NCBI GenBank assembly: GCA_963727505.1 | Contig: CAVSGP010000002.1 | Location: 160,001 to 224,000, forward strand | DNA length: 64,000 nucleotides | Origin: an uncultured Trueperaceae bacterium | GTDB lineage: Bacteria; Deinococcota; Deinococci; Deinococcales; Trueperaceae | Reading direction: 5' to 3' | Shown here: positions 42,274 through 58,269 of the stretch, one piece after another | How positions within the stretch are numbered: the stretch's first letter is position 1 | Layout: each line of letters starts with the position of its first letter | Made by a program: the position numbers and the translations under genes | Notes under the pieces: generated by a model | The model's input: the letters and a program-made list of their open reading frames with translations, nothing else | Told to the model about the DNA's origin: nothing | The model's database searches: none

Positions 42274-42795
42274 ATGCCCGAGCCCCACCACCCCGGGAAC
42301 CTCCGCGCCCGCGCTTCGGCCGGCGAGGTCGAGCGCTACCTGGCCGAGCACATCCCGCTGGCGCGGGCGCTCGGCGCCCGGGTGGAACGCTACGACGCTC
42401 GCGAGCTACGGATCTCCGCGCCGCTGACGCCCAACCTCAACCACCGGGACACCGCCTTCGGCGGCAGCCTCTCGGCCCTGGCCATTCTCGCCGGCTGGGC
42501 CAGGGTGGCCTTCGACTTGCGCGCGCGGGGCGTAAGCGCGCACGTGGTCGTCCAACGCAGCACCGTCGACTTCGATGCGCCGGTGGAGAGCGCGTTCGAG
42601 GTCCGCATCGCGGCCTTCGACGAGGCCGTCTGGGCCACATTCCAACGCACGCTGGCGAGGCGCCGCAAGGCGCGCATCGTTGTCCAGGGCACGCTGCTGG
42701 CCAACGGGGAGCCGGTAGCCCGCTTCGACGCGCGCTACGTGGCGCTCTCCGGCGACGCCGGCACGGCCTCCTCCCGACCGCGCTCGAAGAGGTAG
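42274..42795 (+). CDS. YiiD C-terminal-like hotdog-fold thioesterase
   Basis: IPLA..LG; APL.PN.NH..TAFGGSL..LA.LAGW; 3' end overlaps the RND gene's 3' end by 61 bp. Confidence 0.82.
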
Positions 42796-45700
42796 AACGC
42801 CGCTGGGACCACGAAGAACGTGAGCAGCGCCGAGACCAGGATGCCACCGAGCATCACCAGGGCGATGCCGTGGTTGAACTCCGATCCCGCGCCGCGTCCC
42901 AACAACAGCGGGAAACTGATGACCAGCACCGTCAGCGTCGTCATGACGATGGGGCGGAAGCGAAGCCGCGCCGACTCGACCATCGCCTGCTTGAACGGCA
43001 TCTTGCCGATACGCTCGACCACGAACTCCAGGTAGAGGATGGCGTTCTTCGCCGACAGGCCGATCAGCAGCAACATCCCCATGAGGCTGAAGATGTCGAG
43101 CGACTGGCCCTGCACCACCAGGAACCACACCGCCCCGGCCACCGCCAGCGGCACCGGCAACAGCAGATAGATGGGGTAGCGGAAGGAGTTGAACTGCGCT
43201 CCCATCACCAGGTAGGCGAGCAGCAGTGCCAGTGCGAACACCCGCGGCCCCAGGGTACCGAGCTGCCGGGACAGCCCGGCGCGACCGAAGCTGTCCCCGG
43301 CGCCCAGCGTGACGTGGCTGTCCAGCACTCCGGCCTGGGTGAGCTGCTCGGTGATCTGGCGCTGGAACTCGATCGGGCTCGGCGCATCGGCGCTGGGCGT
43401 GATGGAGAAGCGCGCGCTGTACAGGCGGTTGCTGCGGCTGATGCTGATCGGCGCCTGCCTCTCGACGATGGCGCCGAGCTGACTGATCTGGAGGTTGGTG
43501 TGCAACGACGGCGCGTAGATGGGCAACGACAGCAGCGACTGCGCGTCGTGGAGATAGGTGGGATCGAGCTGGACGACGATGCTGTCGCTCTCGCCACCGG
43601 TCTGCACGGCACCGGCGGTGCTGCCGCCGGTGAAGGCGCGCAACGTCTGCGCGACGCTGTTGGCGGAGATGCCGGTGCCGGAGAGCAAGTCGGGATTGGG
43701 CACGAACACGGACTCCGGCGAGGACTGCTGGTTGCCGGCGTCGACGCTCAGCACGTCCGGGTCCCCCGACAGCACCGCCGACACCCGTTGCAGTCGCTGG
43801 TTGAGCAGGGCGTAGTCGGTCGACAGCAGGTCGAACGACACGGCCGAGCCCTGGCCGCGGAAGCCGCCGCCCGTGCGCACGAACACCCGGGCCCCGGGGA
43901 TGGCGCTCGCCGCGCTCTGCAGCGCACCCTGGTACTCGGCGCCGAGCGCGTAGATGCTGGGCCGCTGGGTGACGGGCGCGAGCTGTGCTTGCACGCTGAC
44001 GTCGTTGCTGCTCACACTCGTCTGAACGGTGCGCACCGCCTTCTGCGCCAGCAGGTAGCGCTCCACATTGCCGGCCACCTGGTTGGCGGCGGCCAGGGTG
44101 GTACCGGAGGGCAACCGGGCGCCGATCTGCATCAGGCCGGAGTCGGTCTGCGGCACGAAGTTGAGCGACACCCTGGGGCCCACCACGAACAGCGTGAGCG
44201 CCAGGAAGGCGCCCGCACCCAGAAGGACCAAGGCGCTGAACGGGAGCATCCGTTCGAGCAACGCGGCATAACCATCGCGCGTCCGGCGCAGCCCCGCCTC
44301 GGTCCAACCGTGCAGGGTGGTCGTGAGCGCCTCCAGCGTCGTGAAGACCGCCCTCACCAGATAGGCAAGGACCATCAGCGCCGGCGGGAAGAGCACCAGC
44401 GCGAGCAGGGACAGCGGGGACGCGAAGCGCCACAGAGCATAGGCGCCGGCCGCCACCGCGAGCAACCCGAGCGGCCGACGCCAGGCACGCCAACCCCAGC
44501 GCACGGCGTCGCCGAAGGCGACCAGGCTGCGGCCGGCGTCGCGCCAGCCACGGGGCGGCGCGTCGCCGATGTAGGCCATGCGGACCGTCAGGAACAGGAG
44601 CGCCTCGAGCCAGGAGAGGAACACCGCGGCCGCCAGTCCCAGCCCGAACTGGCGCAGGTAGGCTCCGGCGAAGCCGCCCATGAAGCTCACCGGGATGAGC
44701 ACCGCCAGGATCGACAGCGACGCCGCCGTGACAGCGCCGAACACCTCGCTGGCGCCGCGTAGCACGGCGGTGCGGCGGTCCAGGCCCATCGCGCGGTAGC
44801 GCTCCACGTTCTCGGCAACCACGATGGAGTCGTCGACCACGATGCCGATCGCCACGATGAGCGCCAGCAGCGACACCTCGTTGAAGGTGAAGCCCATCAA
44901 GCCGTAGAGCACGGGCGCGGCGGAGAGCGCGATGGGGATGGCCAGGATCACCGTGAAGGCGGTGTTGAGCCGCCCCAGGAAGAGCAGCACGATGATCGCC
45001 ACCACGATGGCGGTGATCCACAGCTCGTGGAAGGTGGACTGCACCGAAGCCACGATGGGGCCGGTGGTGTCGTTGCTGACCGTGACGCTGTAGCCCGTGG
45101 GCAGCACGGTGCGCTGGAGGTAGGCACGCACGCCGTTCGCCACGGCCACGGCGTTGCTGCCCGACGCCTGCTGGACCGACAGCAGCACTGCCGGCTTACC
45201 GTTGACACGGGTATAGGAGTTGGCGATGGAAGCCTGCTGCACCCGGCCGAGATCCTGCACGCGGACGTTGCGGCTGTTGTCGACCACCATGGTGGCGATG
45301 TCCTGCACGCCGGTGGGCTGGGTGCGGGTGGAGAAGGTGAGGACGTCGTTCTGGCGCGTGATCGAACCGATCGGCTGGTTGACGATGGATGCCCCGATGG
45401 CCTGGCTGACCTGCTGGGGCGCAAGGTTGTAGTAGCTCAACTTGGCGGGGTCGAGCAGCACCTGGTAGCGGCGGCTCGAGCCGCCCGAGACGTTGACGTT
45501 GGCCACGCCGGGCACGAGTTGCAGGGCGGGAACCAGGATGTTGTTGGCGTAGGCGTAGACGTCGTCCATGTTGGCGCCGTTGCCCTGCAGGCCCAGCTCC
45601 AGGATGGGTTGCGCGTTCGGATCGAAGGTCCGCACGATCGGTGAGTTGGCGTCGCTGGGGAGGCCGCGCAGGGCGGCGACCTGTGCCGCCACGGCGTTGG

Positions 45701-46094
45701 CGATGGCGGCCTGGTTGGTATCGGTGCCGAATTGCAGGATCACGCGGCTCGAGCCGGTGCCGCTGTTCGAGCTGATGCTGGTGATGCCGCCCACGGTCGA
45801 AACCGCGGACTCCACCACCTGCGTGACCTGCTGGTCCACCACCGCCGGCGACGCGCCGGGGTAGCTGGTGCTCACCATCACCACCGGGATGTTGGTGGTG
45901 GGCAGCAGATCCACGCCCAGGCGGCTGGCCTCGATCAATCCGAAGACGACCACGCCCACGAAGATGCCAATGGACAGCACGTAGCGAGCCACCGACAACC
46001 CCACCAGCGGGTTGACGCGCGTGGCGACCACCGCGCTGGCTTCCTCGCCCGCACCCCGCGAGGCGGCGGGTTCCCGATCGTCCTCGCCCATCAC
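42735..46094 (-). CDS. RND efflux permease (AcrB/AcrD/AcrF family), copy 1
   Basis: [27 protein letters not shown]; two large periplasmic loops. Confidence 0.92.
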
Positions 46095-47745
46095 TGGCCT
46101 CCGCCGGCCGGCGGAGGCCCGCTGCCGCCGGTGGGGCCGCCCGCAGGCAAGCTACGACGGCCCGAAGGGGCCGTTCCGCCGGGCGCCGTACCACTCGGTG
46201 CAGGACTGCCGGGCGCAGGACTGCCGGGCGCAGCCGCGCCGGCGGCCGCGCCACCGTTCCCGTTCGGGACGCCCGCTCCCCGTGCGCTCCGTGCCGAGGG
46301 TGCGCTGCGGTCGCTCGGAGCGCCACCGGCCGACCCGCTGCGGGCCGCCGTGCTGACCTCGGAGCCGTCGAGCAGCCCGGGTGGGGGCTGATCGATGACC
46401 GTCGCCCCCGACGGGACTCCGCTGACGGCTGCGTCGCTGCCGGCCTGCGCCAGGATGGTCAGATCGGTCTGCACCGCCTTGCCGCCCTCGATCAGGAACA
46501 CGAAGGTATTGGTGCCGTCGTTCTGGATGGCGCTGATCGGCACGAGCGTGGCCGTGGCCAGGGTGACCCGGTAGGGCACGGTGCCCACGACGCCGATGGC
46601 GAGCGAGCCGGCCGGCGCCCCCCGCCGCGCCGCCCGTCGGCGCGTCCTGTGCAGTGGAGTGCTGTGCAGCGGAGTCCTGTGCAGTGGCGTCGAAACGGGC
46701 GGTCACTGCGACTCCCTGGTTGACAGGGACACCGGGCCGCTGGGTGACGGTGATCGGGTACTGCGCCACGCCGGTATCGAACGACAGGCGCGTGCCTGCG
46801 GTGAACGCGGCCGCGTCGGAGGGCGGCACCGACATCTGCACCTGCCGCTGCCCGCTGACGAGCATCGCCACCGCCGTGGACGGCCCCACGTACTCGCCGG
46901 GGGCCACGTTGAAGGCAGCGACTTGTCCTGCGAAGGGAGCTCGGATGGTGGCGTTCGCGAGGTTCATCTCCGCCTGCTTGACGCCGTTCTGGGACTGCGA
47001 CACCGCCAGCCGCAACTGCTGCAGGCTTCCGGTCTGGGCGCGCTGGTTCTGCGACGCGTTGTTCTCCGCCGAGGCGACGTTCGCCCGGGCCTGGTCGAGC
47101 TGACTCCTGGCGCTGTCCACGCTGGACTTGGAAGTGCCGCCCAGCGCGTAGACCTTCTGCGCCGAGGCGTAATTCGCCTCCGCCGCCGACAGCGCAGACT
47201 TGGCTGCCTCCAGCTGGTGGTCGAGCTGCGCGACCGCCTGCTCGGTGTTCGTCTGCTGTGTGCTCAGATTGATCTCCGCATTGCTGAGCGACGTCTTGGC
47301 GTTGGCGAGCGCCAGCTCCAGGTTATCGGTGGCAAGCTGCATGATCGGCTGCTGGGCGTGGACCTCGTCCCCCGCAGCCACCAACAGCGTCTTCACGGTG
47401 CCGCTGGCCTGCGCCGCGACGTTGCTCTGCATCACCGCGGCCACCGTCCCCGTCGCGGTGCGGTCGGCCACCAGCGGACCGCTCTTCACCGTGACCGCCT
47501 GTACCTCGACGGTAGCGCCGGTGCCGCCGCCCCCTGCGAACCCGCCACCCGGGGAGCCTCCCGCTCCGCCGCGCGAGAACCCGCCGGCGCCGCCGCGTCC
47601 GCCGCCGGGAAACGCGCCGCCGGGTGCAGCACTGCCGGCGCCGCCGGCGGCGCACCGGAGTGCCCGTGCTACCCCGGAGTGCGTAGCCACCGAAGCCCGC
47701 AGCGACCACCAGGATGATCAGGAGCGCCCAGCCGCGGGCTCTCAC
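46091..47745 (-). pseudogene. RND periplasmic adaptor (MFP), copy 1, interrupted by two apparent +1 frameshifts
   Basis: N-terminal TM frame from GTG 47745, core MFP frame (IRAPFAG) and C-terminal frame (46091-46617) differ; removing 2 nt gives a 550-aa ORF. Confidence 0.75.
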
Positions 47746-48845
47746 GGAGCGCCTCCCGACCCCGGCGTCGCCGGCCCCACCAGGCCTGTGAGGTCCTGCC
47801 CGGCCGAGACGGAGAGCGTCACGAGCGCGTTGCGGTAGCCGTCGACGGCCTGCAGCAGGCTGTAGGTCGAAGAGGCGACCGCGACCCCATCGGACTGGAC
47901 CTGGAGGGCGGAAACCGTGCCCGCCTCGAGGGCCGCCCGGTCCTGCTGCAAGACCTGACGGACGTTGTCGAGGTTCTGCTGCGCGATGGCGATGCGGGCA
48001 TCGGCGTCGTGCGCCGCCTGGTAGGCGTTCGCCAGGCTGGTGGCGGCGTTCTGCCGGGCGGTGTCCAGACTTCTCTGGGCATTGTCCAGCGACGTCTTGG
48101 CCGTCTGGTAGGTCATGCGGGGGGTGTAGTCGTTGTCGTAGAGCTTGACCTGGAGCGTGTAGAGCTCGACCGACTGCCGCGCCTGGACCACCGATGGCAA
48201 GCGCTGCAGCAGTCCCTTCTCGAGGTCGGCAAGCTTCGCGGTCACTTGCGGCAGGTCGGGCGGAGCGGAGACCGTCACCGATCCCAGGTCGGTCACGCCG
48301 AGCAGCGTAGCGAGCTGCGCGCCGGCCGCGGGCACCTTGGCCTGGGCGTTGGCAAGGGTCTGTTGGGCGCTCTGCAGCGCGGTCCTGGCCTTGGAGACAT
48401 CGAGTGAGGTGGCATTCCCGTCGCCGAACTTCGCCTGCGCCACCTGCAGATCGCGATCCGCCAGGTCGCGCTGGGCCTGCGCCACCGTTACGTTCTGCTG
48501 TGCCTCGTACAGCGACAGGTAGGCGTTGACGACGCTCTGGAGCACCTGGAGCCGGGTTGCTTCCAGCCCGACCCGGCTCTGCGCGGCCGCCTGCTGCGCC
48601 TGCGTCTTCTGCAGTACCAGCGCCGACGGATCGGCCTGCACCGCCTTGAGCTGGAGCCCCGCGTTGGCCAGGTTGGTCTGGGCGCTGGCCAGCGCGGCGC
48701 CCTGCCCGTAGGCGCGTGCCAGCGCCTGGGGAAGATCGAGGGTGGCGGCCTTCGCCGTCGACGAGGGCTGAGGCGGAACGACGCTCTGCTGCGCCGACGC
48801 CGTCGCGACGAGCAGAGCGACGAGGAGGAACGTGCGGATTCTCAT
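47742..48845 (-). CDS. TolC-like outer membrane factor lacking beta-barrel strands (OMF-B, copy 1)
   Basis: Signal peptide; two OEP helical repeats (VVNAYL, G..T.LDV); strand positions replaced by the short turns ADPSAL and DNDYTP. Confidence 0.8.
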   Translation of the reverse strand: MRIRTFLLVALLVATASAQQSVVPPQPSSTAKAATLDLPQALARAYGQGAALASAQTNLANAGLQLKAVQADPSALVLQKTQAQQAAAQSRVGLEATRLQVLQSVVNAYLSLYEAQQNVTVAQAQRDLADRDLQVAQAKFGDGNATSLDVSKARTALQSAQQTLANAQAKVPAAGAQLATLLGVTDLGSVTVSAPPDLPQVTAKLADLEKGLLQRLPSVVQARQSVELYTLQVKLYDNDYTPRMTYQTAKTSLDNAQRSLDTARQNAATSLANAYQAAHDADARIAIAQQNLDNVRQVLQQDRAALEAGTVSALQVQSDGVAVASSTYSLLQAVDGYRNALVTLSVSAGQDLTGLVGPATPGSGGAP

Positions 48846-50338
48846 GGGAGCCCTCCGGGGGTTGCAGTGAGCTCCCCCAGCGCGTTGCGCAGTTGGAGCA
48901 AAGCCAGGTAGTACGCGTTCTGATCCGACTCCACGGAACGTTGCGCCTGGTCGTAAGCGACGCGAGCGTCGCCGACATCCAGTGCGGTGGCGAGGCCCGC
49001 GGCGAGGCGCGCCTGCGCCGTAGCGAGCGCCTGCTGTGAAGCGGCCAGCGACGCCCGGTCGGCGGCCAGCGACCCCTCGATCGCCTGCCACGTCGCGTAG
49101 CGCTGACGGATGTCGAGCGCAGCGGAGCGCCGGGTGGCCGCCAGCGCCGCCTCGGCGCTGGCCAGCGCGGTGCGGGCAGAGCCCACGGCCGCGTCCGACG
49201 AAGGCGCGTCCAACGGGATGCTCACCGAGGCACCGATGCTGAGCTGGGTGGTGACCGCCCCCGACGCTCCCGGAGCGATGGGATAGGAGACGCTGCCGCT
49301 AGCGACGCCCTTCTGGAAGTCGAGCCCGGCGTTCACGCCGAGGCCTACCTGCGTGCCGCTGGCATCGTGGCTCGTCACCCCGAGGGCGAGGCTGGCGCTC
49401 GGGATCCAGCGCTGCGCGGCACTCACAGACAGTGAGCCCTGGGCCTGCCGGACCCGGATCTGCGCCACCTGCACGTCGTCGCGTCGGGGCACGCCCGCCT
49501 GCACGAGATCGGCGAGCGATCCGGCTGGAGCCGTGGGCTGCGGCGCCACCGTGGTCAAGGGAGCATCGGTCAGGGGCATGCCGAGGGTGTCGAAGAGCGT
49601 GCGGCGAGCGAGGTCGAGCGTGCCGGCCGCCTGGGCCAGGGCGGCCTGGGCTCCCGCCAGCGCCGCCTGCGCCTGGGCCAGCCCCTGATCGCTGAGCTGT
49701 CCCTGGGCGTGTTGCGCCTGGGCCGCGCTCAGCTTCGCCTGCGCCTGCCGGGCCGCGGCCTGGGCCGCGTCGTTGGCGGTGGCCGCCAGACGGGCCGCGA
49801 AGTACTGCTGCTCGACGGTGAGGCGCAGTCCCGCCCGGGCGCTGTCGCGGTTGAGGGCGGCCACGGCGAGCCCGGCCTCGGAATTGGCGATCGAGGCGTC
49901 GACCGGCGCCCACGGCAAGACCGTGGCGGAGGCCGAAACGGAGACCTTGGCGGTCGCTCCGGTGCGGCCGCCCGTGCCCGCCAGGGTGTCGGTGCGGTCG
50001 TAACTGCCGCCGGCCGCCACCTGCAATCCGGCGTTGGCCCGGGCGGCGGCCAGCGCGTCCGCCGCGCTCCGGTAGTCGAGGTCGGCCTTCTGCCAGCCGG
50101 GCGCCTGGGGAAGCGCAGCGAGTGCGTCCGCGAGGGTGAATCCGGGCGCCTCCGCAGGGGCTTGGGCGGGTGGCTGGGCTGGCGTTTCGGCCGGCGTCTC
50201 GGCCGGCGTCTGGGCCGGCGTCTCGGCCGGCGTCTGGGTGGACGCCTGTGCGCGCGCCGGCGGGCCGAGCAGGAACGGGACCAGTACGAGCGCCAGGACG
50301 AGGACCGCCCCCGACGCCCGCATGCGGTTGGGGCTCAT
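48842..50338 (-). CDS. TolC-like outer membrane factor with 2+4 predicted beta-strands (OMF-A, copy 1)
   Basis: Signal peptide; TPAE repeats; OEP repeats; GLATALDV; four alternating-pattern strands in repeat 2. Confidence 0.82.
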   Translation of the reverse strand: MSPNRMRASGAVLVLALVLVPFLLGPPARAQASTQTPAETPAQTPAETPAETPAQPPAQAPAEAPGFTLADALAALPQAPGWQKADLDYRSAADALAAARANAGLQVAAGGSYDRTDTLAGTGGRTGATAKVSVSASATVLPWAPVDASIANSEAGLAVAALNRDSARAGLRLTVEQQYFAARLAATANDAAQAAARQAQAKLSAAQAQHAQGQLSDQGLAQAQAALAGAQAALAQAAGTLDLARRTLFDTLGMPLTDAPLTTVAPQPTAPAGSLADLVQAGVPRRDDVQVAQIRVRQAQGSLSVSAAQRWIPSASLALGVTSHDASGTQVGLGVNAGLDFQKGVASGSVSYPIAPGASGAVTTQLSIGASVSIPLDAPSSDAAVGSARTALASAEAALAATRRSAALDIRQRYATWQAIEGSLAADRASLAASQQALATAQARLAAGLATALDVGDARVAYDQAQRSVESDQNAYYLALLQLRNALGELTATPGGLP

Positions 50339-50583
50339 GTCGCCAAGCGTTCGCCAGGGGCGTGCAGGACTGGCGCGGATCATGTGCAGCTCATGTGCAG
50401 ATGTGCCGATGGCCCGCCGGCGCGGCCGAGACTGGGGGCGGGGCCACAACGCGGCGCGGGACCTGGCTGCTACAATCGATAGTTGGCTATGATGAACTTT
50501 TCGGAAACGCCAATTGTTCTCGCGAGTCGCTCGCCACGAGCGCCGTCGAGCGGGCCCGTGTTCCGTCCCGACCGAAAGCGGTC

Positions 50584-51021
50584 ATGAAGGACGCCCGCTC
50601 GGACACGCGCGCCGGTCTGCTATCCGAGCTTCACGAGACCACCTTCCGCATGATGCGGGTGCAGCGCCAGGTCGCCGACCGGGCCTTCTCGCCCCTCGGC
50701 CTGCGGCCGGTGCAGGCCTTCGCGCTCGCGCTGCTCGGGCATGAGGCCAGCTACCCGAAGGAGCTCGCGCACCTGCTCGACGCTCCGCCCTCGGTGGTCT
50801 CGGTCCTGCTGTCCGACCTCGAGGGGCGAGGGCTGGTGAGCCGAACGGTGGACCCGGCCGACCGGCGCCGGGTACGGCTCGAGCTCACCGCCGAAGGGCG
50901 CCGCACGCTCGATGCCGTCCAACACGCCTGGCTCGACGCCAACGCCCCCCGCCTCGCCCGACTCGGCACGGCAGACCTAGAAGCCCTGGTGCGCATCCAG
51001 AAGGCCCTGCTAGAGGAGTGA
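50584..51021 (+). CDS. MarR family transcriptional regulator
   Basis: LE.RGLV.R..DPADRR...L.LT.EG. Confidence 0.9.
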   Translation: MKDARSDTRAGLLSELHETTFRMMRVQRQVADRAFSPLGLRPVQAFALALLGHEASYPKELAHLLDAPPSVVSVLLSDLEGRGLVSRTVDPADRRRVRLELTAEGRRTLDAVQHAWLDANAPRLARLGTADLEALVRIQKALLEE

Positions 51022-51025
51022 CGCC

Positions 51026-52357
51026 ATGAAACGAACGCTCTTGCTCGCCTTCCTCCTCCTCTTGCCGACGGTCACCGCCCAGTCGGGGCAGGACACACCC
51101 ACGCTGAGCACCTTCCTCGCCCCCCTCGCCGACCAGCCGTCGCTACGGGCGGTGGGCGAGCAGGTGGCCTCGGCCGAGGCCCAGCTGCGGGCGGCCTACG
51201 ACCCGGTCTCGCTGCAGGCGTCGGGGGGGTACACCGCCTTCGACACCACCTCGGTCGATATCAACCCCGCCCAGTCCGGCGTGCAGAACCTGCCGGCCAG
51301 TGGCGGACAGATCTCGGCCGCCGTGACCGTACGCCCCTGGCTTTTCGGCGACACCGCCGACCAGGCCGACAAGAGCCGCCTCCAGCTCGACCAGACCCGG
51401 CTCGACTACCGCGACGCCCTGACCGGCCTCCAGATCCAGGCGGTGCAAGCCGCCTACGGCGTGCAACTCGCCCGCGAGTCGCTGGCCTCGGCCCAGGAGG
51501 GCGAGAAGGTCGCCCAGGCTGCGCTCGACGCCACCCGCTTGCGGAACGACAAGGGAGCGGCCAGCGACCGCGACCTTCGCAGCGCCCAGACCGGGCTCGA
51601 GCAGGCCCGCCAGTACGTGGCCAACGCCAAGGGGGGGCTGGCGCTCGCGCAGACCACGCTCGAGAGCCTGGTCGGCCCCACCGCCGCGCCCGACGTGGCG
51701 GCGTTGACGCTCGAGGTCCCCGACGGCACCGCTCTTTCGGTCCAGAAGGCGCGCCTGAGCGCGAGCCTGGCCGGTGTCTCGGTGCGCAACGCCACCCGCT
51801 CGGTCTACCCCGTCGTGCAGGCCGGTTACACCTGGAACGTCGACAGCAAGGACAGCGTCGGCGTGTCGATCGAGTCGCGCACGCTCCAACCCAAGGTCAG
51901 CTACGGCTTCCAGAGTCCGGGGAGCTCCTTCCCCCAGGACCAGATCAACGGCAGCTTCCAGATCGGCGTGTCGATGACCATCTCCCCCGGTGTCATCGAC
52001 GGCCTGCGGGCCACCCATGCACAGCTCCGCGCCGCCCAGGACGGCGTCGATGCTGCGGTGCGCAGCGCCGCGGTACAGAAGGCGTCGCTCGACAACGATC
52101 TCGCTCAGGCCAAGCGCGCGTTGAGCCTTGCGCAGCGCCAACTCGACGATGCGCACGCCACCCTCCAGGAGGACCAGACCCGCGAGAGGCTCGGCCTGGG
52201 AACCCCCCTGACCACGCAACAGGCGGCGCTGGACCTCACCCAGCGCCAACTCGACCTACAGCAGGCCCGCCAGGACACCCTCGCCAAGACCCTGGCGTAC
52301 TACCGCTTCTACGCCCACCCCCTGGTGAGCCAGACCCCGTCGGAGGTCCAGCCGTGA
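51026..52357 (+). CDS. TolC-like outer membrane factor with 2+4 predicted beta-strands (OMF-A, copy 2)
   Basis: Signal peptide; OEP helical repeats; strands VSLQASGGY and QISAAVTV in repeat 1; VVQAGYTW, SVGVSIES, PKVSYGF and FQIGVSMTI in repeat 2. Confidence 0.82.
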   Translation: MKRTLLLAFLLLLPTVTAQSGQDTPTLSTFLAPLADQPSLRAVGEQVASAEAQLRAAYDPVSLQASGGYTAFDTTSVDINPAQSGVQNLPASGGQISAAVTVRPWLFGDTADQADKSRLQLDQTRLDYRDALTGLQIQAVQAAYGVQLARESLASAQEGEKVAQAALDATRLRNDKGAASDRDLRSAQTGLEQARQYVANAKGGLALAQTTLESLVGPTAAPDVAALTLEVPDGTALSVQKARLSASLAGVSVRNATRSVYPVVQAGYTWNVDSKDSVGVSIESRTLQPKVSYGFQSPGSSFPQDQINGSFQIGVSMTISPGVIDGLRATHAQLRAAQDGVDAAVRSAAVQKASLDNDLAQAKRALSLAQRQLDDAHATLQEDQTRERLGLGTPLTTQQAALDLTQRQLDLQQARQDTLAKTLAYYRFYAHPLVSQTPSEVQP

Positions 52358-53469
52358 AACGCCTCATCTTCGCTCTCGTCGGCGTGTTGCCGCTGCTCCT
52401 GCCCGCCGCGCACGCATTCGGATTCCAGGACGCCCTGCAGGCCGCGCAGACGCGGCCCGACGCCGTGACCAAGCGGCTCGAGCTCCTCAACGACAGCAAC
52501 GAGCTGGTGCGTGTGCAGGGCGATCCCCTCGCCCTCAAGATGGACCTCGTCAAGGCTCAGCAGGCGGTCGCGCTCGATCGCGCCGAACTCGAGAAGGCCT
52601 ACGACGACGCCCTCGTGACCATCGCCCAGGCCTACACGGGCGTCCTCGAGGCGCGCGAGCAGGCGGCACTTGCGGACAAGGGCGTCGAGGTGAGCAAGGC
52701 GTCGCTCGACATCGCCAAGATCCGCCGCACCAACGGCAGCGGCACCGACCTCGACGTGCAGGACGCCCAGGTGTCGCTCGACAACGCCACCAAGAACACG
52801 CAGACCGCCCACAAGAGCCTGGCGATCGCCGAAGCCAATCTGGAGGGCCTGGTCGGGCAGACCCTCGACCCAGGCGCGCTCGAGCCGATCCCCGATGTCT
52901 TCCTGGTGGACGTGCCGTCGACCGACACCGCCACCCAGGCGCTGCCCCACACGCCGCAGCTGCTGCAGTCCCAGCAGGGCCTGGTGCTGGCCCGGCTCGG
53001 GGTCCAGATGCTCGACCCGAGCTACGCATCGGCGTCGCAGATCGAGTCCGCCAAGACGCAGTTACAGACCACCGAGAAGCTCGTCGCCGAAGCGCAGCGC
53101 GGCCTCCAGATCCAGGCCAGGAACCTGGTGGTGCAGGCCCAGAGCGCAGCCGAGTCCTTCCGCATCGAGCAGGACAACCTGGCCAACGCCAACCAGCGGC
53201 TCGGGTTCGCCTCGGACCGGCTGAACGCCGGCCTGATCCCCAAGATCCAGTTCCAGAAGGCGGAGCTCGACCAGCTCCAGGCCAAGCTCTCTGCGTTGCA
53301 GGCGCGCGACGGCTACGTGGTGGCGCTGCTCCAGCTCCAGGCCGGCACCCAGCTCCAGCTGCAGGGCCCGAGCGTCTACGATTTCGCGGCCACCGTGGGA
53401 CCTCTACCCGGCGATGCCGGCGTTGCACCCAGCGGAGGCGCAGGGAACGGTTCCAGCAATGGGCAGTAG
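52354..53469 (+). CDS. TolC-like outer membrane factor lacking beta-barrel strands (OMF-B, copy 2)
   Basis: Signal peptide; OEP helices (IAQAY, GSGTDLDV, GLIPK); turns GDPLAL and DPSYAS at the strand positions. Confidence 0.8.
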   Translation: MKRLIFALVGVLPLLLPAAHAFGFQDALQAAQTRPDAVTKRLELLNDSNELVRVQGDPLALKMDLVKAQQAVALDRAELEKAYDDALVTIAQAYTGVLEAREQAALADKGVEVSKASLDIAKIRRTNGSGTDLDVQDAQVSLDNATKNTQTAHKSLAIAEANLEGLVGQTLDPGALEPIPDVFLVDVPSTDTATQALPHTPQLLQSQQGLVLARLGVQMLDPSYASASQIESAKTQLQTTEKLVAEAQRGLQIQARNLVVQAQSAAESFRIEQDNLANANQRLGFASDRLNAGLIPKIQFQKAELDQLQAKLSALQARDGYVVALLQLQAGTQLQLQGPSVYDFAATVGPLPGDAGVAPSGGAGNGSSNGQ

Positions 53470-54754
53470 GCCGGCCCGTCACGCGCTCACGGCCCTGCTG
53501 CTGACGCTGGTGCTGGTCCCGCTGACGGCGTGCGGTGGCCGCAAGGCGAGCGACCAGAGCGGGACCCAGCCGGCCGCCGGAACGACCGCCACGCAGACGG
53601 CGGCCGGATCGGCGGGGGCCGCCAGCGACGTGCGCAAGGTACGCGTCGTCCAGCCCCGTCAGGGTCAGCTCACAGCGCAGCGCAGCGCCTCGGTGACCAT
53701 CGACCCGGCCCGCTCGTCGATGGTCGCGGCCGGCACCTCCGGACAAGTGGCGAGCGTGCTCCACCGTGAAGGCGCCACCGTGAAGGCGGGCGAGACGGTC
53801 GTGCAGCTCGACACCACCTCGCTGCAGCTCCAGGTCCAGAACGCCCAGACGGCCCTGGAGAGCGCGAAGGTCAACCTCTCCAAGGCCCAGCAGTCGGCCA
53901 GAGACGGCCTGGCGCAGACCCAGGCCGCGCTCGACGCCGCCCAGCAGAACCTGTCGCTGGCCCAGAGGCAGGTCGACAACGGCAAGAACCTCTACGCCGC
54001 CGGCGGCATCTCCGCCACCGACCTGCAGAGCCTGCAGGCGCAGCTCGCCCAGGCCCAGTCGAGCTACCAGCAGGCCAGGGACGCGGTCGACCAGGCGCAG
54101 CGCGCCGAGACCGAGGACCTCCAGCTCCAGCGGTTGCAGGTGCAGCAGGCCCAGACCCAGCTCGACCAGGCGCGGCACACCCTGGCCGAGGCCACCATCA
54201 CCGCGCCGTTCGACGGCCAGATCGCCGACATGCGGGTCTCCGAAGGCGAGTTCGTGGCGACCGGTAGCCCCGTGTTCCGGCTCGTCTCCGTACGGACCCA
54301 GCTCGCCAAGTTCGATGTACCCCCACAGGACGCGCAGCAGCTCTCCGACAAGGGCGTGGTGTACGTGAGCTACGGTGGCCTCGACTACGCCGCCAAGATC
54401 GTGCGCAGCACCACCGTAACGGGATCGTCGCGGCAAGTGGAGCTTACCGCCAGCGTGTACGCCTCCAAGCACCCCATGCCGATCGGTGCGACCGGCCAGG
54501 TCAACTACCAGGTGACGCTGGCGACCGGTCTGTTGCTCCCGTCCGACGCGCTCAAGACCGACAGCGGCGAGAGCACGGTGCTGGTGGTCAAGGATGGCGT
54601 CGCGACACAGACGAAGGTACAGCTCCAGGCCGAGGTCGGGGGTACCGCCGCGATCCAGGGCCTGCCGGCCGGCAGTCAGGTCGTCTACCCCGTCCCCGGT
54701 GACCTCCTGGCAGGCTCCAAGGTCCAGGTCGTGGGGGGCGCCACGTCGCCATGA
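53459..54754 (+). CDS. RND periplasmic adaptor (MFP), copy 2, lipoprotein
   Basis: Lipobox LTAC; G.V..V...G..VKAG; long alpha-hairpin; ITAPFDG. Confidence 0.9.
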   Translation: MGSRPARHALTALLLTLVLVPLTACGGRKASDQSGTQPAAGTTATQTAAGSAGAASDVRKVRVVQPRQGQLTAQRSASVTIDPARSSMVAAGTSGQVASVLHREGATVKAGETVVQLDTTSLQLQVQNAQTALESAKVNLSKAQQSARDGLAQTQAALDAAQQNLSLAQRQVDNGKNLYAAGGISATDLQSLQAQLAQAQSSYQQARDAVDQAQRAETEDLQLQRLQVQQAQTQLDQARHTLAEATITAPFDGQIADMRVSEGEFVATGSPVFRLVSVRTQLAKFDVPPQDAQQLSDKGVVYVSYGGLDYAAKIVRSTTVTGSSRQVELTASVYASKHPMPIGATGQVNYQVTLATGLLLPSDALKTDSGESTVLVVKDGVATQTKVQLQAEVGGTAAIQGLPAGSQVVYPVPGDLLAGSKVQVVGGATSP

Positions 54755-57700
54755 GACGCCTGGTCCAGTTCTTCGTCAACAACTACGTCCTGACCATCAG
54801 CGTCTTCGGGGCACTGGTGCTGTTCGGCGCCGTGAGCACCCTGAGCCGCGGCATCGAGCTGTTCCCGCCCATCACCGTGCCGGTCATCGCCGTCACCACC
54901 AGCTACAGCGGGGCGGGACCGGAGGAGGTGTCGCGTCAGGTGGCGCAGGCCGAGGAGGGCGCCCTCACCACGCTCCCCGGCATCAGCTCCGTCAGCTCGG
55001 TCAGCTACGAGGGCTACGCCATCGTCATCGCCCAGTTCAACGCCAACGCCGACATCAATCAGGCCGCCATCGACGTGAGCCAGCGTATCTCCCAGATCGG
55101 CAACCAGCTCCCCGACGGCGCCGGCAACCCGACGGTCCAGAAGTTCAACCCCAACGACCAGCCGATCCTCAGCGTGGCGGTCTCAGCGCCCGGTCAGGAC
55201 CTGATGGCCGTACAGAACTACGCCGAGAACACGCTGCAACCCGCCATCGAGAGGGTCAACGGGGTGGCAGACGTGACCGTGGTGGGGCCGGCCAAGGAGC
55301 AGGTGCAGGTCCTGCTCGATCCCAACGCGCTTGCCAACTTCGGCCTGACCCCCCAGCAAGTGTCGAACGCCATCCAGGCGTCGGCGCTCGACGTGCCGGC
55401 CGGCAGCCTGGATTTCGCCAACAGCCGCGTTCTGCTCACGGCGCGCGCCACCCCGACCGATGTCGCGCAGGTGGCGTCGATCCCGGTCGATCCCTCACGC
55501 GGTCTCAGCGTTTCCGATGTCGCCACGGTGCGCGACACCACCGCCAAGCCCACCTCCTACGCGCGCCTCGACGGCGAGCCGGTGGTGCTGCTGCAGGTGC
55601 GCAAGCTGTCGGACAGCAACGCCGTGGCGACCGCCAACGACCTGCGTGCCGCGCTGAAGAAGCTCGACCTGCCGGCCGGCTACAGCACGCAGATCGTGGG
55701 CGATACCACCACCTACGTGGCGTCCAGCGTCTACGACACCCTCCAGGAGATGCTGATCGCAGCGCTCGCCGTCTCCCTGGTCGTGCTGATGTTCGTCGGC
55801 CGGCTCGGCTCGGTGTTCGCCGTGGTACTCGCGATCCCGGTGGCGCTGTCGGGCGCACTGGTGATGTTCTGGCTGTTCAACTACAGCTTCAACATCATCA
55901 CGCTCCTCGCCCTCACCGTCGCCATCGGCCTGGTGGTCGACGACGCCATCGTGGTGGCCGAGAACATCGACCGCTACCGGGAGATGGGGTACGCGCGCCA
56001 CGAGGCGGTGCTCAAGGGCGCCAGCGAAGTCTCAACGGCGGTCCTGGCGGCGACCATGTCGCTGCTGGCGGTGTTCCTGCCGATCTCGTTCCTGCCCGGC
56101 ATCATCGGCCAGTTCTTCGCCCAGTTCGGCATCACCCTGGCGGCCACCGTGGCCTTCAGCTACTTGGAGGCGATGTTCTTCCTGACGGTCCGCCTGGCGC
56201 TGTCGCCAGATCCTTTCCCGCCGTCGTGGCGCGACCTCCCGGCTGCGCTGCGAGCGACGCGCAACGATCTCCGGTGGGGCCTGCACTTCTACCGCAGCGT
56301 CTGGTTCTGGCTCATCGCCCTGGCCGCGGGTGCCGGCCTCGTGCGGGGCCTTGGCGTGCGCTACCTAGCGCTACTGGTGCTTCTGCCGCTGCTGCTGGTG
56401 CTGCTCCGCATGCTCCTGCGCGTTGTGCTCGCGGTGCTCGGGGCGCTCTCGCTCAATCTCTTCCAGGTGGGCGACTTCCTGATCACGCGCACCCGCGACG
56501 CCTACGTGGCGGCGCTGTCGCGCCTGCTCCCGCGATCCTGGATCGTCCTCGTCACGGCCGCGCTGCTGTTCGCCAGCCTGTTCTGGGTGTTCCCGCGCAT
56601 CGGCTTCAACTTCCAGCCGCCGTCGGACACGGGCCAGCTCGTCGTCGACGCCCGTCTACCGGTGGGGACCAGCCTGGCGCGCACCAACCAGGTGGCCACA
56701 CAGATCGAGGCCAACCTGTTGGCCGACCCCATGGTGACGACCGTGCAGACGACGGTCGGCTCCGGCACCCAGGTCGGCGGCGCACTGCCCGAGGACGCCA
56801 GCCTGACCCTGCAGCTCGTCGACAAGAGCCAGCGCAACCGCACCACCAGCGAGCTGGCGGTGGCCGTCCAGGACCGCTTGCGCACGATGTTCGCCAGCCA
56901 CCCGGAGATCCGCATCAGCGTCGGCAGCTCCGACCCCAGCAACGCCCCCACCAACGCCGGCTACGACCTGACGCTGGCGTCGACCAACCTGGACGCGCTG
57001 CGTCAGCACTCCGACCAGGCGGTGGTCGTGCTGCAGAGCGACCCGCAGCTCCGCAACGTCCGCTCCGACGTGTCCTCCAGCTCAACCGAGCGCGTCTTCG
57101 TGGCGGACGCCGCGCAACTGGCGGGCACCGGCCTGACCCGCGCACAGATCTTCCAGGCACTGCGCACCTACAACGTCGGCACCCATGCCGCAACCATGCG
57201 CAAGTCGGGCGTGGAGATCCCCATCCAGGTGATGGCCGATCCCCGCAATCTCGTGAACGAGCAGACCATCCTCAGCCTGCCGCTGTACGCGCCCGGCCTG
57301 CAGACCACCGTCACGCTGGGCGACCTCGGTCACTTCGAGACCCGCCTCGCCCCCGCTGTGATCCGCCGCACCAACCAGTCCTACAGCTCCGACGTGACCG
57401 CTGACCTGGCGCCGGGCGTGACCCAGTCCGAGGCGAAGCAGCAGGCGCACCAGCTGTTGGTGGCTGCCGGGGTGCTCGACGCGCAAGTGGTGCAGACCAC
57501 CAGCGGGAACCTCGACCTGCTGGGCGACCTGCTCAAGTACGGTCCGATCGCGTTCGCACTGGCGCTGCTGCTGAACTACCTGGCCATCGGTAGCCAGTTC
57601 AACTCCTTCAAGTATCCGCTCTACCTGTTGCTGACGGTCCCGCTGGCGCTGGTCGGAGCGATCTGGCTGTTCTACTTCACCGGCAACTCGCTCGACGTGA

Positions 57701-58269
57701 TCAGCATCCTGGGGGTGGTGATGCTGGTGGGTCTGGTCACCAAGAACGCCATCCTGCTCCTGGACGTGACCATGCGGCGGGCCTCCGAAGGGGACGACCT
57801 CTACGCCGCTCTGGTGGAGGCCGGGCGTGTGCGCTTCCGGCCCATCGTGATGACCACCCTCACCGTCGTGGTCATCAGCATCCCGTTGATGGTCGGCGCC
57901 TCGCAGGGAGCGGAGTTCCGCTTCCCGCTGGGTCTGGTCATCGTGGGGGGCGTGCTCAGCTCGGCGCTGCTGACCTTCTTCGTCGTGCCTGCCGCCTTCT
58001 ACCAGTTCGAGCGCAAGCGCTACGAGCGACTGGGGGCGGCGGCCGTCCCGCGTGGCGGCGCGGCCCCGGACGCCTCACCCAGCGGCGGCGGCGCGGGTGG
58101 CCCGGTAGAGCGCGGGCAAGACCGCTCCCCCCGGAGCGGTGGACCCGGCCCCTCGCAGCGACGTCCGAGCAGCGCGAGCCCGCACACCGGTAGCCCGAAC
58201 ACCGCCACCGAACGCAGTCGCGCACGCACCGAGCCCGGAAACCCCGACGAGGCGACCGGGGGCCGCTAG
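54751..58269 (+). CDS. RND efflux permease (AcrB/AcrD/AcrF family), copy 2
   Basis: [28 protein letters not shown]. Confidence 0.93.
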   Translation: MRRLVQFFVNNYVLTISVFGALVLFGAVSTLSRGIELFPPITVPVIAVTTSYSGAGPEEVSRQVAQAEEGALTTLPGISSVSSVSYEGYAIVIAQFNANADINQAAIDVSQRISQIGNQLPDGAGNPTVQKFNPNDQPILSVAVSAPGQDLMAVQNYAENTLQPAIERVNGVADVTVVGPAKEQVQVLLDPNALANFGLTPQQVSNAIQASALDVPAGSLDFANSRVLLTARATPTDVAQVASIPVDPSRGLSVSDVATVRDTTAKPTSYARLDGEPVVLLQVRKLSDSNAVATANDLRAALKKLDLPAGYSTQIVGDTTTYVASSVYDTLQEMLIAALAVSLVVLMFVGRLGSVFAVVLAIPVALSGALVMFWLFNYSFNIITLLALTVAIGLVVDDAIVVAENIDRYREMGYARHEAVLKGASEVSTAVLAATMSLLAVFLPISFLPGIIGQFFAQFGITLAATVAFSYLEAMFFLTVRLALSPDPFPPSWRDLPAALRATRNDLRWGLHFYRSVWFWLIALAAGAGLVRGLGVRYLALLVLLPLLLVLLRMLLRVVLAVLGALSLNLFQVGDFLITRTRDAYVAALSRLLPRSWIVLVTAALLFASLFWVFPRIGFNFQPPSDTGQLVVDARLPVGTSLARTNQVATQIEANLLADPMVTTVQTTVGSGTQVGGALPEDASLTLQLVDKSQRNRTTSELAVAVQDRLRTMFASHPEIRISVGSSDPSNAPTNAGYDLTLASTNLDALRQHSDQAVVVLQSDPQLRNVRSDVSSSSTERVFVADAAQLAGTGLTRAQIFQALRTYNVGTHAATMRKSGVEIPIQVMADPRNLVNEQTILSLPLYAPGLQTTVTLGDLGHFETRLAPAVIRRTNQSYSSDVTADLAPGVTQSEAKQQAHQLLVAAGVLDAQVVQTTSGNLDLLGDLLKYGPIAFALALLLNYLAIGSQFNSFKYPLYLLLTVPLALVGAIWLFYFTGNSLDVISILGVVMLVGLVTKNAILLLDVTMRRASEGDDLYAALVEAGRVRFRPIVMTTLTVVVISIPLMVGASQGAEFRFPLGLVIVGGVLSSALLTFFVVPAAFYQFERKRYERLGAAAVPRGGAAPDASPSGGGAGGPVERGQDRSPRSGGPGPSQRRPSSASPHTGSPNTATERSRARTEPGNPDEATGGR

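Follow-up and report, generated by a model that had tools for sequence, protein, structure and literature searches.

Two efflux operons encode paired TolC-like proteins of unequal strand content in a stretch of 64,000 nucleotides (hereafter the window) from an uncultured Trueperaceae bacterium of the Deinococcota (contig CAVSGP010000002.1, positions 160,001 to 224,000). The operons lie at 42.7-58.3 kb of the window, are divergently oriented and consist of four genes each in the order A-B-MFP-RND, where A and B are the TolC-like proteins, MFP is the periplasmic adaptor and RND is the inner-membrane transporter of the resistance-nodulation-division family. Structure prediction shows A as a TolC-fold protein with six predicted beta-strands per chain. 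B is shown in the same way as a secreted TolC-fold protein, predicted to consist of a full-length helical tunnel part with no membrane part. By fold, Pfam assignment and operon context both are members of the TolC/OprM superfamily, and neither is canonical by its barrel. The A-B pair is the standard outer-membrane factor (OMF) of the Deinococcota. Our preferred reading, held tentatively and with somewhat less than even confidence, is that A and B, as two specialised paralogues of the TolC family, jointly build the pump's outer exit duct, with a trimer of A (A3) placed over a stacked trimer of B (B3).

Fold and strand content of the A and B proteins

Operon 1 is encoded on the minus strand and starts with OMF-A1 (48842..50338, 498 aa) followed by OMF-B1 (47742..48845, 367 aa). 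On the plus strand, operon 2 starts with OMF-A2 (51026..52357, 443 aa) and OMF-B2 (52354..53469, 371 aa). All four proteins match the Pfam family OEP (PF02321), with E-values of 3.3e-36 for A1, 1.8e-17 for B1, 1e-28 for A2 and 4.5e-23 for B2. The genes and coordinates of both pairs had been given in an earlier note on this DNA and are correct according to the open reading frame list and the sequences. The note had also described the pair in each operon as translationally coupled, which is borne out by four-nucleotide stop/start overlaps at the A/B junctions (ATGA between A1 and B1, GTGA between A2 and B2). Hydrophobic, signal-like N-termini with AxA-type sites were read by eye from the sequences of A1, B1, A2 and B2.

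Structures were predicted with AlphaFold2 for A2 and B2, and the pattern of A1 and B1 was derived from alignment only. The family alignments comprised 33 rows each, namely 31 relatives (of 58 for B2 and of 42 for A2) and the two window paralogues. The A2 model has a pLDDT (predicted local distance difference test) value of 87.3 and contains six strands, which are distributed 2+4 over the two repeats. Residues 61-71 and 92-102 form the strands of repeat 1, and residues 263-271, 276-283, 290-297 and 309-316 those of repeat 2. The linkers between strands and helices in this model are 2, 6, 4 and 4 residues long, and ESRTLQP forms a conserved periplasmic turn between strands 4 and 5. The B2 model (pLDDT 93.2, predicted template modelling score 0.86) is all-helical and has 0 strands. 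Its helices span residues 35-56, 62-126, 132-167, 201-219, 227-291 and 297-332, and turns of 5-7 residues, marked by GDPLAL and LDPSYAS, replace the two TolC hairpins. The helix lengths of the two models are similar, with 65, 36 and 19-22 residues in B2 versus 67-68, 36 and 21-22 residues in A2. The canonical number of four strands per protomer was found in neither protein, as A2 has six and B2 has none. The repeat-2 region of A1 comprises 72 aa with four alternating segments and shares the 2+4 pattern by alignment, and the turns of B1 (QADPSAL and YDNDYTP) align ungapped with those of B2. This supports the earlier note, which had assigned six strands split 2+4 to OMF-A and no hairpins to OMF-B: the monomer models show neither normal hairpins in B2 nor only four strands in A2, and the alignments agree for A1 and B1.

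The helical part of B resembles that of known OMFs. Because its long helices and its lower helix-turn-helix tips (IRRTNGSGTDLDV and DRLNAGLIPKIQ) follow the ordinary OEP pattern, B appears to retain what an OMF uses to meet the hairpins of the adaptor. Two stretches of each of A1, A2, B1 and B2 match PF02321 above the cut-off. In B1 and B2 both stretches are limited to profile positions of about 81-187, which represent the helical part, whereas the A proteins match positions 1-187. A Foldseek search of the Protein Data Bank (PDB) with the B2 model returned solved OMFs including TolC and OprM with a probability of 1.00 and TM-scores of about 0.55-0.69. The A2 model matched TolC, OprM, CusC and others, also with a probability of 1.00 and with TM-scores of about 0.6-0.66. 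Together the OMFs matched by the two models were TolC, OprM, CusC, VceC, MtrE and CmeC. All Foldseek matches of B2 in the PDB were ordinary OMFs, and no solved barrel-less TolC-like protein was among them.

Sequence searches of the PDB were less productive. A2 alone gave 0 matches, and B2 alone gave one weak match to an OprJ-like protein (E 0.0076). The profile of the A family matches TolC, CmeC and OprM in the PDB, but both TolC repeats align to repeat 1 of A. In this alignment the repeat-2 hairpin of Escherichia coli TolC carries a long loop, so that the length of this region alone is no proof of four strands.

According to PMC8407342, solved OMFs are homotrimers in which each protomer contributes four strands to a 12-stranded barrel. 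The proteins of the window share with TolC, OprM and CusC the double PF02321 repeat, the protomer fold, signal-like N-termini, an operon with adaptor and RND transporter, helices of 65-68 residues and the lower tips. They differ in having 6 + 0 strands in two always-paired genes instead of four strands per protomer.

The N-terminus of A1 has a further feature. After the signal peptide, a Pro/Thr/Ala/Glu-rich repeat with TPAETPAQ-like units extends over about 40 residues (window positions of about 50134-50248, minus strand). This type of repeat is absent from A2, and similar low-complexity N-terminal linkers occur in several relatives.

Conservation of the A-B pair in the Deinococcota

A profile of the B family matches 255 of 301 Deinococcota genomes at E <= 1e-10, including the genome from which the window originates. 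Searched against 1.84 billion representative proteins, the same profile retrieved 136 clusters at E <= 1e-30. Among the 150 clusters listed, most have 320-400 residues and match from end to end, and some thirty are fragments, longer proteins or partial matches. The named relatives belong to 'Deinococcales bacterium', Deinococcus, Meiothermus and Calidithermus. In the Atlas, short OEP clusters (322 and 332 aa) labelled Spirochaetota and Pseudomonadota are among the nearest neighbours of B2, and hairpin-free TolC-like proteins may exist outside the Deinococcota as well.

Pairing was scored with profiles of both the A and the B family over 70 loci containing a B gene. These comprise the window itself and two duplicates (L049 = L028, L050 = L020), leaving 67 distinct foreign loci from five families. 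An A-type gene is located directly upstream of B on the same strand in 69 of the 70 loci; the survey of adjacency that the earlier note had suggested finds the pair in 66 of the 67 distinct foreign loci. The exception is locus L027 (2600-4038), where about 120 C-terminal residues of A are left upstream, interrupted by stops, and B is still open. The stretch upstream of this remnant appears to be an unrelated sequence that looks A+T-rich by eye.

The asymmetry between the two proteins is retained along with their adjacency. The repeat-2 strand region of A comprises 60-92 aa in all 69 partners, 51 of which carry an SRTLQP-like turn. Neither turn window of B contains a gap in any of the 72 aligned rows (the 70 loci and two window references), and D-P is found at the first turn in every one of them. 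The 6+0 pattern is far beyond chance.

Two main subtypes of the pair can be distinguished. Counting duplicates and the window, 50 loci are A2-like/B2-like and 18 are A1-like/B1-like, one is divergent and mixed (L070) and one lacks A. The subtypes of A and B agree in 65 of 66 distinct foreign pairs, or in 68 of 69 pairs if duplicates are included. The concordance of the subtypes implies an old duplication of the A-B pair as one unit, after which each A retained its B. The asymmetry is conserved and inherited as a unit, which speaks strongly for a joint function of the two proteins and against decay. The earlier note had drawn the argument against decay from the two paralogous operons of the window, and the phylum-wide conservation of the pair bears it out. 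The mixed locus L070 (1658-3984) represents a third, very divergent type of A-B pair, reaching only 48-74 bits against the window proteins. Its A protein keeps a repeat-2 region of 60 residues and its B protein ungapped D-P and D-N-E-F turns.

A and B were shown to be present or absent together. In five complete or near-complete genomes from four families, every PF02321 match lies either in an A-B pair (eight pairs) or in an adaptor hairpin (three matches), and the search found no lone OMF in them. Five genomes without B (G141, G184, G125, G162 and G201; 94-98% complete) contain no match to PF02321, and A is absent from them too. They represent lineages of the window's own family and apparently lack any TolC-like duct. 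The earlier note had named a common occurrence of A without B as an observation that would speak against its proposal, and no A without B was found in any genome examined.

In the genome of the window itself, PF02321 matches only A1, B1, A2 and B2, two adaptors and, weakly, one protein on another contig, so that it holds no other OMF. This last protein acts as adaptor in an ABC pump of the MacAB type (L071, 2455-5866), whose operon encodes the adaptor, an ATPase and a MacB/FtsX permease and has no gene for an OMF. This pump presumably relies on the A/B ducts encoded in the window.

Possible assemblies of the exit duct

The assemblies considered here are proposals that draw on the monomer models, the anatomy of the proteins and the dimensions of the envelope. 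In the stacked arrangement three A chains would make up a homotrimeric channel whose 18-stranded barrel sits on a tunnel of 12 helices. B would likewise be a homotrimer, a 12-helix tube without a barrel that is open at both ends; its lower end would have the tips of a canonical OMF, and its upper end six short D-P turns. B3 would share its axis with A3 and be placed below the periplasmic tip of A3 and above the hairpin tips of the adaptor hexamer. From the outer to the inner membrane the stack would consist of A3, B3, adaptor hexamer and RND transporter, which equals the gene order A-B-MFP-RND. With helices of 65 residues, B3 would lengthen the duct by about 10 nm.

Barrel geometry is compatible with a trimer of A. 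By the standard relation for barrel geometry, eighteen strands of ordinary tilt would form a barrel whose radius of about 16-17 Å lies near that of a 12-helix tunnel. In a three-fold A3 each chain would account for 120 degrees of both barrels, and such a trimer would need only small offsets between strands and helices. The linkers of 2-6 residues predicted by the A2 model would fit this geometry. The four-nucleotide overlaps between the A and B genes weakly suggest a near-equimolar synthesis, which would suit A3 plus B3 better than a heterotrimer of two A and one B (A2B). Slightly more doubtful is the extended version of the stacked arrangement, in which the duct consists of two TolC-like trimers, the 18-stranded A3 and a tip-to-tip B3, and B3 units might also stack on one another to give a modular duct of variable length for a periplasm of 70-121 nm. 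Such stacking of B3 on B3 might occur, given the resemblance between the lower tips of the two proteins.

The extension by B3 is motivated by published periplasm widths and by the length of a secretin. The periplasm of Deinococcus radiodurans measures 121 +/- 4 nm, and its peptidoglycan starts 30 nm from the outer membrane (PMC9388160). For Thermus thermophilus a width of about 70 nm has been described as 'extraordinarily wide' (PMC4463427). The type II secretin of D. radiodurans is 350 Å tall compared to about 220 Å elsewhere, which its authors relate to the thicker envelope (PMC10828601). According to these reports, PilQ of T. thermophilus, the secretin of D. radiodurans and the coiled-coil connector SlpA are outer-membrane complexes lengthened for a periplasm of 70-121 nm (PMC4463427, PMC10828601, PMC9388160). 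These machines gain their length from extra domains or subunits of other folds, whereas here a second, barrel-less copy of the channel is proposed. The adaptor EmrA of Aquifex, with a coiled coil of 127 Å, represents another way to lengthen a duct (PMC4158417). The adaptors of the window likewise have long hairpins of about 125 residues. The lengthening in EmrA occurs within the adaptor and involves no separate TolC-like protein. A barrel-less B3 tube that lengthens the duct across a wide periplasm, which the earlier note had listed as an alternative, agrees with the anatomy and with the published dimensions of the envelope no less well than A2B does, and a two-part duct may help the pumps to cross an unusually wide envelope.

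Several points weigh against the stacked arrangement. The six-strand count derives from a single monomer model (A2), and for the A1 type it was obtained by alignment. The formation of B3 and its end-to-end contact with A3 are both inferred. Under this arrangement A would have gained two strands and B would have lost four in events independent of each other, yet the sum 6+6+0 is the canonical 12. No docking motif like those of adaptor or OMF tips was recognised at the top turns of B when the sequences were read by eye. The invariant D-P of these turns does not look like the glycine-rich tips found in OMFs and in the local adaptor, and it may serve as a helix cap instead of a docking surface. 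An additional 10 nm covers only a small part of 70-121 nm, and the stacking of B3 on B3 is speculation. To our knowledge no OMF has an 18-stranded barrel, and a literature search on such barrels found none. A complex prediction with A2 (residues 27-434) and B2 (residues 22-342) gave a score of 0.00 (mark 0.32); it had no controls and counts neither way.

The earlier note had preferred the A2B heterotrimer. In this assembly a single channel would be formed by 12 strands and 12 helices, with the extra hairpins of A filling the gaps that B leaves in the barrel. The arithmetic is exact, as 6+6+0 gives the 12 canonical strands. Both anomalies always occur together and were duplicated together, as compensation predicts, and A and B have equal helix lengths, as a shared tunnel would require. 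Furthermore, the turn of the extra hairpin of A carries a conserved basic residue (in ESRTLQP of the A2 type and in LKSG or QKG of the A1 type), and the invariant Asp of the top turns of B could contact it or form a salt bridge with it. However, judging from the A2 model, the sheet of each A chain would have to extend over 180 degrees of the barrel, with its helices taking up 120 degrees. The junctions would be displaced by about 9-17 Å, yet the linkers have only 2, 6, 4 and 4 residues. Two identical A chains would also have to adopt different conformations, and one extra hairpin per A offers no symmetric cover for the two hairpins missing from B. The stop/start overlaps point, weakly, to synthesis at 1:1 and not at 2:1. 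Of the two main models we hold A2B to be the weaker one, and improbable. The earlier proposal is supported in that the asymmetry is real, conserved and indicative of joint function; its stoichiometry would be a less likely one, as the short linkers of the A2 model speak against it.

It is equally improbable, in our estimate, that A3 alone is the complete duct and B an accessory protein, acting as a sheath or brace, a cap or plug, a peptidoglycan spacer or a chaperone of A. A has all canonical features of an OMF plus two strands, and a continuous lumen through A and B rests on inference. The identity between orthologues is 54-56% for B and 37-39% for A (L032, L043 and L051), which indicates a strong constraint on B without specifying its kind. 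However, helices of full tunnel length and canonical lower tips would be odd for a protein that is not a conduit. Strict adjacency, coupling and co-loss argue for an obligate subunit. No examined genome has A without B, and B is still open where A is broken (L027). The remaining probability falls on other arrangements.

Two further readings were rejected. The earlier note had listed A3B3 with an 18-stranded barrel, which as a lateral ring would, by our estimate, fail on geometry, since 24 helices cannot match 18 strands. That B is a decaying, non-functional paralogue of A that lost its barrel is hardly credible: the loss of both hairpins might be expected of a degenerating membrane protein, but B has ungapped turns in 72/72 rows, 58 relatives, 136 clusters, matches in 255/301 genomes and a model with a pLDDT of 93, and its two ancient subtypes have each stayed with an A of their own.

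A precedent exists in the heterotrimeric RND transporter MdtBC, where paralogous subunits from neighbouring genes replace a homotrimer in a tripartite pump (PMC8277102). MdtBC differs in being an inner-membrane transporter, both subunits of which have the full fold. No heteromeric OMF was found in the available part of PMC8277102 or in the literature search. For Deinococcus-Thermus, no barrel-less, six-strand, heteromeric or paired OMFs were found to be described in the full-text literature, a scope that leaves subscription journals, supplements and structure-database annotations outside. The A/B arrangement is thus provisionally regarded as undescribed.

Current pump models rest on an OMF that is a homotrimer with a 12-stranded barrel. 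In the Deinococcota, to which the model organisms Deinococcus and Thermus belong, OMFs appear to occur solely as obligate pairs of a six-strand and a 0-strand protein. Either outcome, an asymmetric A2B or an 18-stranded channel with a detachable helical tube, would amount to a novel architecture among tripartite pumps. The pairs also make it testable how efflux and type 1 secretion get across a periplasm whose width is three- to fourfold the length of AcrAB-TolC. The A and B proteins are small and, in Thermus, thermostable, and Thermus is genetically tractable.

Regulator, transporters and adaptors of the two operons

The G+C content of the window is 68-73%. A MarR-family regulator is encoded between the operons on the plus strand, directly upstream of A2 (50585..51021, start codon inferred). 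Its assignment is based on matches to MarR_2 (3.1e-08) and HTH_27 in the open reading frame 50170-51021. The RND transporters were identified by the Pfam domain ACR_tran, with RND1 on the minus strand (42735..46094, 4.8e-183) and RND2 on the plus strand (54751..58269, 3.1e-200). All parts of a tripartite RND pump were found, i.e. the RND transporter, an adaptor with an alpha-hairpin and an outer-membrane channel, and they amount to four components and not three.

The adaptor of operon 1, MFP1 (46091..47690, minus strand), matches HlyD_3, HlyD_D23 and Biotin_lipoyl and is frameshifted in this assembly. Its N- and C-terminal parts are in different reading frames, with the split located downstream of a 15-bp tandem repeat of 3.2 copies (46644-46691). 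Both parts are in one frame in two of two genomes from the same genus (L072 and L073). Either the frameshift is real or the assembly contains an error here, and the minus-strand operon may not be fully intact. The adaptor of operon 2, MFP2 (53414..54754, plus strand; HlyD_D23 1e-13, HlyD_3 1.9e-12), likely has its true start near 53459. By its LTAC sequence the protein is likely a lipoprotein.

The helical hairpin of the adaptors was estimated from sequence and domain boundaries to comprise about 125 residues, with two helices of about 60 each. Residues 137-229 of MFP2 match the OEP profile (8.6e-06). Adaptor hairpins pass the Pfam cut-off for OEP at profile positions of about 87-179 in both operons (window positions 53822-54100 and 47043-47318) and also at the G014 and G046 loci. 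The tip of the MFP2 hairpin, LYAAGGISATDL, is similar to an OMF tip. These similarities hint at a relationship between the adaptor hairpin and the coiled coil of OMFs.

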